64,000 nt of DNA from Escherichia coli (GTDB lineage Bacteria > Pseudomonadota > Gammaproteobacteria > Enterobacterales > Enterobacteriaceae): NCBI RefSeq assembly GCF_003334785.1, contig NZ_QOWV01000005.1. The stretch is one strand, 5' to 3'. Of this stretch, positions 18,001 through 21,000 are shown piece after piece. Position 1 is the stretch's first letter. Every line of letters starts with the position of its first letter. A program made the position numbers.

Positions 18001-21000
18001 TTCTTCGATAAAGCGTTCAGCATCACTTAATGACAGGCGATCGAGCCACTGTTCATTCTCTTTACCGAAGTTAATGGCCACTTTTTCTACCGCAGTCAGA
18101 ATGATCAGCATATCGGCATCAATCATTTCTGCTAAACGGGCGCTGGCCCAGTCTTTATCGATAACCGCGCTGGCACCACGCAGATGGTTACCTTCACGAA
18201 TAACAGGGATACCACCACCGCCAACGGTGATCACCACCTGACCTGCATCTACCAGAGCTTTAACCGTTTCTTTTTCAATGATATCAACCGGTTTTGGCGA
18301 GGCAACAACACGGCGATAGCCGCGACCAGCATCTTCTTTCAGAGTGTAACCCTGTTTTGTCAGTTGCTCTGCTTCTTGCTCGGTAAAGAACGAACCGATC
18401 GGCTTGGTCGGGTTGAGGAATGCCGGATCGTTAGCGTCGACTTCGACCTGAGTAACCAGCGTTGCTACAGGTTTATTAATGCCCCGAGAAAGCAGTTCTT
18501 CTCTTAAAGCGTTTTGTAGATCGTAACCAATATAACCCTGGCTTAATGCAACACAGACAGACATCGGCAGCATTGGCGAGTGCGCTTCAGTTTTTGCGGC
18601 AGCTTCAAAGGCCTGGTTAATCATGCCCACCTGCGGCCCGTTACCATGAGTGACGATAACTTCATGTCCCTGGGCAATTAAATCAACAATTACCTGAGAA
18701 GTAATTTTTACCGCTTTCATTTGCCCGGCCAGGTCATCGCCCAGCGCATTCCCGCCCAGGGCGAGAACAATTTTCTTACTCATTTTTCCTCACTCATCAT
18801 TCTTGATTGTGTATAGATCCCTGGCAGTGGTTAGAGCACGGGAGGGACAAACGGTTTGCGTCGCAGGAAACGACCTCGCCCGGCTTTGCCTGTAAAGGTG
18901 CCGTCACAGAAAATCGTTTCACCACGGGATAAGGTTCTGACAATCGCGCCCTGACAGGTAAAACCCTCCCATGGCGAGTAGTCGGCGTTGTCGTGGAGAT
19001 GGCGATGCTGAATTTGTTGGCTCTGACGTGGGTCGATAATCACCACGTCGCCGTCGGAACCGGGCGCTAATAATCCTTTTTGCGGCCACAGGCCAAACAA
19101 CCTGGCGGGCATTGCGCTGGTTAATTCAACAAAGCGTTCCGGTGTTATACGTCCCGTCATCACGCCACTGGAAAACAGTAACTGCATGCGGTTTTCCACA
19201 CCGGGTAAGCCATTTGGGCAGCGACTGAAATCGCCTTTAGAAATTTGCAGGCGTTGAGCCATCGAGAAGGTGCAGTGATCGGTTGCCACCACGTCAATCG
19301 CACCATCGCTGATGCCACACCACAGTTTGTCCTGCTCGCGTACGTTACGCAGCGGTGGGCTAAGAATGAACTTCATGCCATCTTCTGTATCGTAACTGCG
19401 TTCGTCCAACAGGAGATATTGTGGGCAGGTTTCAACCCAGACTGGCTGGTGATTCGCACGGGCAAGACGCAGATAATCCAGACCTAAGCCGTTAGACAGG
19501 TGCACGATATAGAGCGGGGCGTTACCGGCAATTTGTGCCAGGTTAATCATGCGGGCGATGGCTTCCGCTTCGCATTCCAGAGGGCGACTCAAGGCATGAT
19601 AGCGCGGCGCGGTTAACCCTGCGGCGATAAATTCCGCCCGCTTGCTGGCGATAGCCGCATCATTTTCCGGGTGCACGGTGGTCAGCGCGCCGGATTCATG
19701 CAAGCGGCGTAATGCCTGCAAAACCTCGTCATCGTTGAGTTTGTATTGATAGGTTAAATAGAGTTTAAAACTGCTCAGTCCTTCCTCGACCATCATCGGG
19801 ATTTCGTCGAGGATTGCGTGATTAATGTGCTGGATCACACCGTGAAAGCTGTAATCGATGACCGCTTTATGGGCGGCATAACCACGATAAACCTCCAGTT
19901 GATGGCGTAACCGACAGCCGTTTGGGCCAAATCCCATATGGTCAATAATGGTTGTTGTACCGCCACACGCAGCTGCGCGGGTACCGGTAAAAAAATCATC
20001 ACAACTGCGCGCGATGCCGACATCAATATTGAAATGCGTATGGACATCCACGCCGCCAGGGAAAACGTAACAGCCAGTGGCATCAATTTCTTCATACGGG
20101 AGCTGCGGCGAAATATTGTTGCCCAACTGGCGAACAATCCCGCTTTCAATCAGCAAATCCTGTTTGGCTTGTCCATCTGCGTTAACGACAGTGCCGTTTT
20201 TGATCAATACGCGCATAGCAAACTCCAAAAACCCTCCGGCGAACCGGAGGGGAATAAGTGAAGAGTAATTACTCTGTTGCCAGCCAGCTTAACGGGATTG
20301 CAGCGTACATCGCGGCACAGGTCACCAGGTGAGATTTCCAGGTTTTTTCGTTAGGTGCATGCGCTTCAGGTTCTTTACCCGGGCCAAAGCCGATCACCGG
20401 AATGCCGTGACGGCCCATGATAGATACGCCGTTAGTTGAGAAGGTCCACTTATCAACAACCGGCGCTTTGCCAAACAGCCCTTCGTAGGCATTCACCAGT
20501 GCTTTAACGGTGAAGTGATCTTCTTCCACTTTCCAGGTCGGGAAGTAGCATTCGGTTGGGTAAACCAGGCCAGTCCAGGACGGACGGTCGTAGTTGTACA
20601 TAGAAACAACCGCGTTAGCTTTCTGTACTGCAGGCAGGGCGCGGATTTCGTCCAGCGCGCCTTCCCAGGTTTCGCCCCAGGTCAGACGACGGTCGATTGA
20701 AACTGCGCAGCTGTCTGCTACAGCGCAACGGCTTGGGGATGTGAAGAAGATTTCAGAAACGGTGAGGGTGCCTTTGCCGAGGAATTCGTCATAACCCAGA
20801 CGTTGGGAGAGTTCTTGTAATTCGCCAAGAATCGGACCCATTTTGAAAATGGCGTTATCACCGCGTTCTGGTGCAGAACCGTGGCAGCTAACACCCTGAA
20901 CATCAATACGAATTTCCATACGACCGCGCTGACCACGGTATACCTGGCAGTCGGTTGGTTCGGTACTGACCACAAATTCCGGGCGAATGCCGGATTGTTC

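Follow-up and report, generated by a model that had tools for sequence, protein, structure and literature searches.

Introduction

It is well established that stem-loops inside an operon can protect the 3' end of the cistron before them (PMC5927463), and described cases include malE-malF, puf and the structures of Dar & Sorek 2018 (PMC5927463). The hairpin considered here, which lies between ygeY and hyuA of Escherichia coli, resembles them in being a stable stem-loop 3' of the upstream cistron, in keeping its structure across genera, in needing no U-tract and in having a counterpart elsewhere in the operon, at the ygeW-ygeX junction (22785-22764). It differs from malE-malF, a multi-copy REP sequence, in being single-copy. 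The Dar & Sorek structures are found mostly in the downstream coding region (PMC5927463), whereas the ygeY-hyuA hairpin is intergenic. Intrinsic terminators inside operons are a second class of close neighbours. Here, the shared traits are a G+C-rich 8-bp stem, a 4-nt loop, an immediate sense-strand U-run, a location just past a stop codon and a positive hairpin-plus-T-tract discriminant. Unlike these terminators, the ygeY-hyuA hairpin is followed by only five U, which merge into the next gene's Shine-Dalgarno sequence; no A-tract lies upstream, and most orthologues have no such U-run although they keep the stem. Finally, 5' hairpins of the papBA type are likewise intercistronic, follow an unstructured stretch and precede a cistron with a strong terminator at its end. 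However, the ygeY-hyuA hairpin tracks the upstream stop codon and not the downstream start.

Gut bacteria break down urate anaerobically by a recently solved (2,8-dioxopurine) pathway, whose lower part is encoded by the ygeW-yqeA operon, and hyuA is required for the same pathway as ygeWXY. In standard media the operon is almost silent. With hyperuricaemia in view, over-expression of the operon is being engineered into E. coli. The stretch from ygeW to arcC has been described as a single operon (10.1101/2022.12.12.520169), and the name 'ygeWXY operon' is also in use (PMC10602906).

A stable hairpin in the ygeY-hyuA spacer

The window analysed, a 64,000-nt stretch of DNA, is E. coli K-12-like. 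The K-12 HMS174 record does not correspond to it over the full length, and contexts distant from the yge genes were excluded. The operon, ygeW-ygeX(dpaL)-ygeY-hyuA-yqeA(arcC), is on the minus strand, and its five co-directional genes are separated by spacers of 47-57 nt. One sigma-54-like site lies upstream of ygeW, and yqeA is followed by a strong terminator. The ygeY-hyuA spacer measures 52 nt and holds the hairpin, the U-run and the Shine-Dalgarno sequence (Table 1). Its coding strand reads, from the end of ygeY, GAG TAA (20271-20269), TTACTCTTCACTTATTC, CCCTCCGG (20251-20244), TTCG (20243-20240), CCGGAGGG (20239-20232), TTTTT (20231-20227), GGAG (20226-20223), TTTGCT and ATG (20216-20214).

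Table 1. Features of the ygeY-hyuA junction, in window coordinates
Feature	Position	Strand	Basis or remark
hyuA start codon ATG	20214..20216	-	RefSeq annotation; hyuA = 461 aa
hyuA Shine-Dalgarno GGAG, 6 nt before ATG	20223..20226	-	outside hairpin; read from sequence
U5 run directly 3' of stem	20227..20231	-	T-tract score 3.89
Intercistronic RNA stem-loop CCCUCCGG-UUCG-CCGGAGGG	20232..20251	-	8 bp; -15.6 kcal/mol; shuffle p = 0.003
Pyrimidine-rich single-stranded spacer, 17 nt, ygeY stop to hairpin	20252..20268	-	sequence
ygeY stop codon TAA	20269..20271	-	read from sequence and annotation
14-nt perfect palindrome AGAGTAATTACTCT across ygeY stop codon	20262..20275	.	judged a chance feature, outside the element

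The preliminary description had reported a terminator-like hairpin in front of hyuA with a perfect 8-bp GC stem. The hairpin is indeed terminator-like, given its stability and the U5 that follows it, and all eight pairs are perfect. The stem is not pure GC: seven pairs are G-C and one is U-A, closed by a UUCG loop. Of 3000 shuffles of the 52-nt spacer that preserved dinucleotides, only 0.27% gave a hairpin as stable (p ~0.003). The hairpin is real and far beyond chance. It is set 17 nt downstream of the ygeY stop and ends 15 nt before the hyuA ATG.

Neither Rfam 15 nor the REP/BIME class accounts for this element. A curated RNA family was rejected because Rfam 15 covariance models gave no match at E <= 1 in window positions 17500-24500, nor any match at the gathering score among 11 orthologous loci. 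A literal search of papers for the stem sequence found nothing. A REP/BIME identity was also rejected, as the 52-nt spacer matches exactly one site per E. coli genome. Stable hairpins are common at the co-directional junctions of this region, and part of the signal may reflect this general habit, not a tuned function.

The 14-bp palindrome noted earlier across the ygeY stop is present, and its status as a notable feature did not hold up. Perfect 14-nt palindromes are as frequent in the window (4 seen) as in shuffles (3.99 +/- 2.0). Other E. coli alleles carry CGAATAATTACTCT in its place, owing to synonymous substitutions in the final codons of ygeY, and other genera lack the palindrome. We rejected it as a functional site on these grounds, and judge it a chance feature that forms no part of the element.

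Conservation within E. coli and across relatives

The 52-nt spacer is identical in 4208 of 4997 E. coli genomes. In divergent alleles, 25% of the flanking third codon positions differ, compared with 0-1 of the 52 spacer positions (P about 3e-7 to 6e-6). This comparison of alleles demonstrates purifying selection on the spacer within the species. The hairpin is invariant among the alleles save for a G>A change in the loop and one rare change at the base of the stem. The most variable part of the spacer is the 17-nt stretch between the stop codon and the hairpin.

About 76 loci, drawn from Enterobacterales, Aeromonas, Vibrionaceae and Shewanella, share the gene order and a short spacer between ygeY and hyuA. 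In 75% of these orthologous spacers there is a GC-rich hairpin of -10 kcal/mol or lower (median -17.1), with shuffle p <= 0.01 in 30 of 40 short ones. Genera differ in the stem sequence and yet retain the pairing. Pairing holds in 92.5% of cells among 31 Enterobacterales sequences, whereas slid controls reach 36-65%. Five of the eight stem pairs show compensatory changes, with 22 cells changed on both sides, and the covariation score (0.32 vs 0.145) was reached by none of 500 shuffles. The stem base, UCCCG...CGGGA, is conserved. The locus has two properties of protective stem-loops: a stable stem 3' of a cistron in a polycistronic unit and a structure that persists across species independently of its sequence.

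The distance from stop codon to hairpin has a median of 13 nt (IQR 10-14; 57 orthologous loci), and variation in spacer length is taken up by the distance from hairpin to ATG (r = 0.94). In longer spacers the hairpin stays near the ygeY stop, 18-274 nt from the hyuA start. Within Enterobacteriaceae, the stem end lies at a constant 12-16 nt from the ATG. Its anchoring to the ygeY stop suggests that the hairpin acts on the 3' end of ygeY.

Terminator-like character in E. coli

Intrinsic terminators are defined by a G+C-rich stem-loop (about 5-14 bp, loop of 3-8 nt) with a U-rich tract directly 3' of it. In E. coli the hairpin and its U5 conform to this classical definition, since the U-run directly follows the stem. 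The hairpin-plus-T-tract discriminant is +29, which ranks second among perfect-stem hairpins in the 64-kb window. Judged from these features, hairpin and U5 together make a credible intrinsic-terminator motif within the operon. The tract directly 3' of the stem (UUUUUGGAGUUU) is short, with five U and then GGAG, and there is no A-tract upstream of the hairpin; termination at U5 may for these reasons be negligible.

Across relatives, the stem-plus-U-tract architecture is not retained; Klebsiella and Kluyvera have UCU where E. coli has U5. Enterobacterales orthologues keep the stem but mostly lack the U-run: their T-tract score has a median of 1.44 (3.89 in E. coli), and of 43 Enterobacterales loci only 21% reach a discriminant above 0. 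As the U-tract is missing in most orthologues, termination is not a conserved role. The partial termination suggested earlier is credible for the E. coli motif; what relatives have in common is the stem alone. The terminators downstream of yqeA are unsuitable as a cross-locus benchmark for the U-tract, their downstream context being too different between genomes. None of ygeW, ygeX, ygeY, hyuA and yqeA is listed in the searchable Term-seq and decay supplements (Adams 2021, TERMITe, Dar & Sorek 2018). RNA-seq has been published for the strain CBT2.0 (PMC12507026).

A proposed 3'-boundary element and its alternatives

With moderate confidence, we read the hairpin as a 3'-boundary element for the ygeWXY part of the polycistronic mRNA: a decay barrier and, in E. 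coli, also a leaky terminator. The stem-loop would form in the RNA about 17 nt past the ygeY stop. The intervening spacer would hold it clear of a ribosome halted on the stop codon, and this distance would spare it from being melted by the terminating ribosome. Its conserved role would be to block 3'-to-5' exonucleases, so that, after downstream cleavage or termination, the ygeWXY segment would survive longer than the hyuA-yqeA segment. As an extra role in E. coli, a fraction of RNA polymerases would probably be released at about 20225-20223. Such termination could only be partial, since hyuA and yqeA serve the same pathway and have no separate promoter motif. As a net result, we infer that hyuA-yqeA would have less mRNA, and therefore less enzyme, than ygeWXY; the hyuA Shine-Dalgarno sequence would remain free. 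The sequence would fit stabilisation in either direction, upstream or downstream. Overall, this is an ordinary kind of element, most likely a leaky stop signal combined with a decay barrier.

Several other readings place the function at hyuA. The preliminary description placed the hairpin at the hyuA ribosome-binding site and suggested that it could regulate hyuA-yqeA translation separately. In fact, the GGAG lies downstream of both the hairpin and the U-run, and GGAG or GAGG is found at the same place in aligned orthologues. Control by occlusion of the Shine-Dalgarno sequence, or by a lower helix coupling hyuA to ygeY termination, would fit the minimum-energy fold of E. coli, in which GGAGU of the Shine-Dalgarno and ACUCU, just past the stop, form a helix that encloses the hairpin, and would also fit the mere 5 nt between hairpin and Shine-Dalgarno. 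We nevertheless consider it very unlikely. The Shine-Dalgarno is outside the stem, and its pairing probability with the upstream spacer (0.69 across 31 orthologues) does not exceed that with shuffled spacers (0.79), on which ground the sequestering lower helix was rejected. Moreover, the hairpin keeps its place relative to the ygeY stop, not relative to the hyuA start, which leaves dedicated translational control of hyuA-yqeA unsupported. A protective role at the 5' end, as in papBA, has somewhat more in its favour: RNase E would cut between stop and stem, and the hairpin would cap and stabilise the processed hyuA-yqeA mRNA. A single-stranded pyrimidine/AU-rich stretch does precede the stem, the fixed distance to the ATG in Enterobacteriaceae would suit such a cap, the other end would be guarded by the strong terminator after yqeA, and the mechanism is documented in other operons (PMC5927463). 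Still, we regard it as unlikely. An element serving the downstream cistron would not be expected to stay by the ygeY stop when spacers lengthen, and an RNase E site is not assignable from sequence. The U5 itself may be either a short terminator U-tract or the U-rich leader of the hyuA ribosome-binding site. That it is solely an S1-binding leader, with the hairpin acting only as a decay barrier and without termination in E. coli, seems to us no more probable than the 5' cap. The stretch between hairpin and Shine-Dalgarno is U-rich (51% U) in nearly all of the 31 orthologues, whatever its length, and most of these would be unable to terminate; on the other hand, a G+C-rich stem followed by five U is the defining architecture of a terminator and scores well, and the two roles are compatible, not exclusive.

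The remaining readings concern how far the hairpin separates the two parts of the operon, or whether it does anything at all. If it were an efficient terminator, it would close a separate ygeWXY unit, and hyuA-yqeA would be transcribed from an unrecognised promoter of their own. The second-best terminator score in the window speaks for this. Against it, a strong terminator would be expected to have a longer tract than five U running into GGAG. The 52-nt spacer is filled by hairpin, U-run and Shine-Dalgarno, and a motif scan saw no minus-strand sigma-70- or sigma-54-like promoter motif inside ygeY, so an internal hyuA promoter was rejected. In addition, hyuA co-varies with ygeWXY in the YgeV iModulon, and the tight five-gene order is kept in more than 70 genomes, mostly without the U-tract. 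Even with the 'ygeWXY operon' named in the literature (PMC10602906), we find a separate unit quite unlikely. As improbable as the occlusion of the Shine-Dalgarno is a conditional attenuator, in which a trans-acting factor or ygeY translation would set read-through into hyuA-yqeA and the conserved stem base would be a recognition site and not just a stable helix. If true, HyuA and YqeA (the ring-opening and ATP-yielding steps) would be controlled apart from YgeW, YgeX and YgeY. Last, the hairpin might have no selected function, being an inverted repeat that arose by chance or hitch-hiked, or else a mobile REP-like element. The frequency of hairpins at co-directional junctions of the region would agree with this. 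The shuffle statistics in E. coli and in the orthologous spacers, the compensatory changes in the stem and the purifying selection on the spacer all oppose it, and a REP-like element is at odds with one copy per genome and the missing Rfam match. A functionless hairpin is already disfavoured and, in our view, highly improbable.

Significance for the urate pathway

If the hairpin is a leaky terminator and decay barrier, the ratio of the pathway enzymes would be set at this junction. It would also explain why databases list a 'ygeWXY' unit where geneticists see one operon, ygeW-arcC. For strain engineering, it would cap the gain in HyuA and YqeA obtainable from a promoter inserted upstream of ygeW. 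Finally, the genera form a clean natural series, in which some have a U-tract after the stem and others do not, and in which termination could be separated from RNA protection.

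Anatomy of the ygeY-hyuA junction

Five co-directional minus-strand genes occupy the locus. The 301 bases around the hairpin between ygeY and hyuA show 100% identity with E. coli K-12, and 5165 of 5426 complete E. coli genomes contain them. Read along the coding strand from the ygeY stop codon to the hyuA start codon, the 52-nt spacer is UAA, UUACUCUUCACUUAUUC, the hairpin CCCUCCGG-UUCG-CCGGAGGG, UUUUU, GGAG, UUUGCU and AUG. The inverted repeat is perfect over 8 bp around a 4-nt loop, although its stem is not pure GC as the preliminary description had it (7 of the 8 pairs are G-C). 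Its fold energy is -15.6 kcal/mol, and an equally stable hairpin turns up in just 0.27% of spacer shuffles that preserve dinucleotides. The element was flagged as terminator-like by a consensus scan. Moreover, a discriminant combining hairpin and T-tract (d'Aubenton-Carafa style) gives +29, the second-highest value for any perfect-stem hairpin in the 64-kb window, both strands included. The terminator-like motif first proposed is thus supported, whereas the proposed position at the hyuA ribosome-binding site is wrong: GGAG lies 3' of the U-run, 6 nt from the hyuA ATG, and a gap of 15 nt separates the end of the stem from that ATG.

Features of the operon on the minus strand (fold energies in kcal/mol)
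Feature	Position	Strand	Basis or description
ygeW	23982-22792	-	RefSeq annotation and ORF list
dpaL/ygeX	22734-21538	-	RefSeq annotation and ORF list
ygeY	21480-20269	-	RefSeq annotation and ORF list
hyuA	20216-18831	-	RefSeq annotation and ORF list
arcC/yqeA	18783-17851	-	RefSeq annotation and ORF list
Sigma-54-like motif	24088-24073	-	TGGCACACTTATTGTT; one mismatch to TGGCAC-N5-TTGCW
ygeW-ygeX hairpin	22764-22785	-	GGGCCGAUC-AGCU-GGUCGGCCC, -16.9, no U-tract
ygeX-ygeY hairpin	21500-21522	-	9 bp, UGCUCCCUG-CAAAA-CGGGGAGUA, -13, then A-run, not U-run
ygeY-hyuA hairpin	20232-20251	-	
U5 tract	20227-20231	-	
hyuA Shine-Dalgarno	20223-20226	-	
Hairpin after yqeA	17819-17844	-	strong, terminator-like, GGCCGGGUGG-GUAAUA-CCAUCCGGCC, -21.1, then AUUUUCAUUU; likely operon end

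A 14-bp palindrome had also been noted across the ygeY stop. It exists, but at chance frequency: the window holds 4 palindromes of 14 nt, and shuffles give 3.99 +/- 2.0. Synonymous differences in the final two codons of ygeY convert the one at the stop to CGAATAATTACTCT in other E. coli alleles.

Conservation as structure

A YgeY search with one genome per species gave 80 loci from Enterobacterales, Aeromonas, Vibrionaceae, Shewanella and some Betaproteobacteria, and the gene order ygeW-ygeX-ygeY-hyuA-yqeA is common to nearly all of them. Counting junction hairpins at -10 kcal/mol or better, we found one at 75% of 76 ygeY-hyuA junctions (median -17.1) and 77% of 70 ygeW-ygeX junctions, whereas the ygeX-ygeY and hyuA-yqeA junctions carry one in only 29% and 17% of loci. 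The hairpins therefore go with certain junctions and not with others. Of 40 short ygeY-hyuA spacers, 30 have a hairpin that outdoes 99% of shuffles.

The helix is conserved as structure, not as sequence. The stem is UCCCCCGG in Citrobacter amalonaticus, CUCCCGUCG in Kluyvera, ACGCCCGCCGCG in Intestinirhabdus, GCCCCGGCAC in Edwardsiella and GGCCCCGUAC in Morganella. Among 31 Enterobacterales sequences, aligned to a covariance model built from the same sequences (a fit that favours pairing), standard pairs fill 92.5% of cells, compared to 36-65% with the partners slid, and both sides have changed in 5 of 8 pairs (22 cells). Covariation scores 0.32, compared to 0.145 when columns are shuffled, and none of 500 shuffles reaches 0.32. 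An unfitted MAFFT/RNAalifold run also gave compensatory changes in 5 of 7 pairs. The stems of the ygeW-ygeX hairpin likewise differ in sequence among orthologous loci.

Within E. coli, 4208 of 4997 matching genomes share one spacer sequence, and the rest depart from it at one or two positions. Divergent-clade alleles differ from K-12 at 29-30 of 300 flanking coding bases, nearly all third codon positions (25% diverged), but at only 0-1 of 52 spacer positions, the sole change being a loop G>A; the probability of so few changes at the third-position rate is 3e-7 to 6e-6. Other variants comprise two changes between stop and stem, plus a rare G>U substitution in the outermost pair (spacer position 37 in E. 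coli SCU-316), which leaves a 7-bp stem and a U-run of six. In E. coli Z1323CEC0019 (~3001-3016 of the locus), a 3'-truncated ygeY adjoins guaD; the genes that separate the two in K-12, among them hyuA, yqeA, yqeBC, mocA, ygfK, ssnA, ygfM, xdhD and xanQ, are not between them and appear to have been deleted.

Position and U-tract across loci

Over the 57 loci whose hairpin is strong, its median start is 13 nt (IQR 10-14) past the ygeY stop, and differences in spacer length are taken up entirely by the distance to the hyuA ATG (11-274 nt; r = 0.94). Placement is similar for the ygeW-ygeX hairpin, a median of 8 nt after the ygeW stop. Given this anchoring to the upstream stop, the element is a 3'-end feature of the upstream cistron and not part of the downstream ribosome-binding site.

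The U-tract is more variable. The stem is followed by U5 in E. coli (T-tract score 3.89) and by U5-U6 in Morganella, Hafnia and some Serratia; only UCU, UUCU or UAUU precedes the Shine-Dalgarno in Klebsiella, Raoultella, Kluyvera, Enterobacter, Cedecea, Pluralibacter and others. Across loci, T-tract scores have a median of 1.44, and 21% of loci give a positive discriminant; at the ygeW-ygeX hairpin, a U-tract is almost never present. Because the tract is mostly absent in relatives, intrinsic termination cannot be the hairpin's conserved role.

Some spacers are longer. Morganella morganii FAM24679 carries a tandem duplication of UUUUUCAGGAGYACC 3' of the hairpin (~6240-6290), giving two U-run-plus-Shine-Dalgarno units before hyuA where the other M. 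morganii genome has one. In two Serratia spp., the spacer has grown to 135 and 363 nt through copies of the inverted-repeat element CCCUCUCCC...GGGAGAGGG(UUAGGGUGAGGGG), which looks like an inserted repetitive extragenic element. Nine Photobacterium and Vibrio loci (L068, L072-L077, L081, L083) have spacers of 250-300 nt with a long conserved hairpin UCCGUCCCGAGGG...CCCUCGGGAUGGA and more stem-loops; those tested gave no Rfam match, and the spacer could contain a promoter, a repeat element or an unknown RNA.

A candidate 3'-boundary element

In the anaerobic urate (2,8-dioxopurine) pathway, the lower part is made up of the five enzymes, and there the HyuA step directly precedes those of YgeW/YqeA, YgeY and YgeX (10.1101/2025.04.24.650524). 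The operon is nearly silent under standard conditions. We consider it somewhat probable that the hairpin is a 3'-boundary element, that is, a decay barrier in most relatives and also a leaky intrinsic terminator in E. coli. A single ygeW-yqeA mRNA would be made, with the hairpin marking the 3' boundary of its ygeWXY part. Once termination is set aside, an exonuclease barrier would be the obvious remaining conserved role: in most relatives, the hairpin would bar 3'-to-5' exonucleases and stabilise the upstream segment, as do 3' barrier hairpins in malE-malF, puf and many E. coli operons (PMC5927463). The E. coli form may add leaky termination, and ygeWXY message would be expected to exceed hyuA-yqeA message. 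We infer termination, barrier function and this expression step alike; the last agrees loosely, as a weak and indirect indication, with the tenfold lower concentration of HyuA than of YgeW/YgeY in an in vitro reconstitution (10.1101/2025.04.24.650524). The searchable data of three E. coli 3'-end or decay studies list none of the operon genes, and our literature search turned up no experimental 3' ends, decay measurements or per-base coverage at the junction.

Several rivals are less probable. A strong terminator could be paired with a hidden hyuA promoter, yet no sigma-70-like or sigma-54-like site was found on the coding strand inside ygeY, and the 13-gene YgeV iModulon lists hyuA together with ygeW, ygeX and ygeY. 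Since, in addition, urate use is impaired in hyuA mutants, a useful share of transcription must run past the hairpin. (Some 90 nt before ygeW starts, within the divergent ygeV-ygeW region, there is a sigma-54-like motif.) A papBA-like 5' cap for hyuA-yqeA fits poorly with a hairpin that follows the ygeY stop at such varied distances from the ATG.

Separate translational control of hyuA-yqeA, as originally suggested, has some appeal in the E. coli minimum-energy fold, where ACUCU just 3' of the ygeY stop pairs with the Shine-Dalgarno GGAGU. Across 31 orthologues, however, Shine-Dalgarno pairing is 0.69 against 0.79 with shuffled upstream spacers, and the hairpin is anchored to the ygeY stop; occlusion or structure-mediated coupling is thus unsupported. 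Two further alternatives are that the U-run is a mere S1-binding leader, with termination absent, and that the hairpin has no function, to be set beside the covariation of its stem.

Relation to known elements and significance

The ygeY-hyuA hairpin is alike in working to operon-internal leaky terminators and to intercistronic protective stem-loops. It is single-copy, which rules out a REP element; it matched no Rfam family, and no paper describing it was found in our literature search. In K-12 HMS174, stable hairpins also occur at the co-directional purine/urate junctions ssnA-ygfM (-19.7 kcal/mol), xdhD-xanQ (-12.1, UUCG loop) and yqeB-yqeC (-10.6), so the design is ordinary: the hairpin is an uncharacterised case of a known element type. 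Its practical value is modest and lies in engineering urate-degrading E. coli. The relatives provide a natural series in which the same stem either has a U-tract or lacks one. A 3' boundary after ygeY would reconcile the name 'ygeW-arcC', used where the genes are treated as one operon (10.1101/2022.12.12.520169), with that of the sigma-54-dependent 'ygeWXY operon' (PMC10602906).
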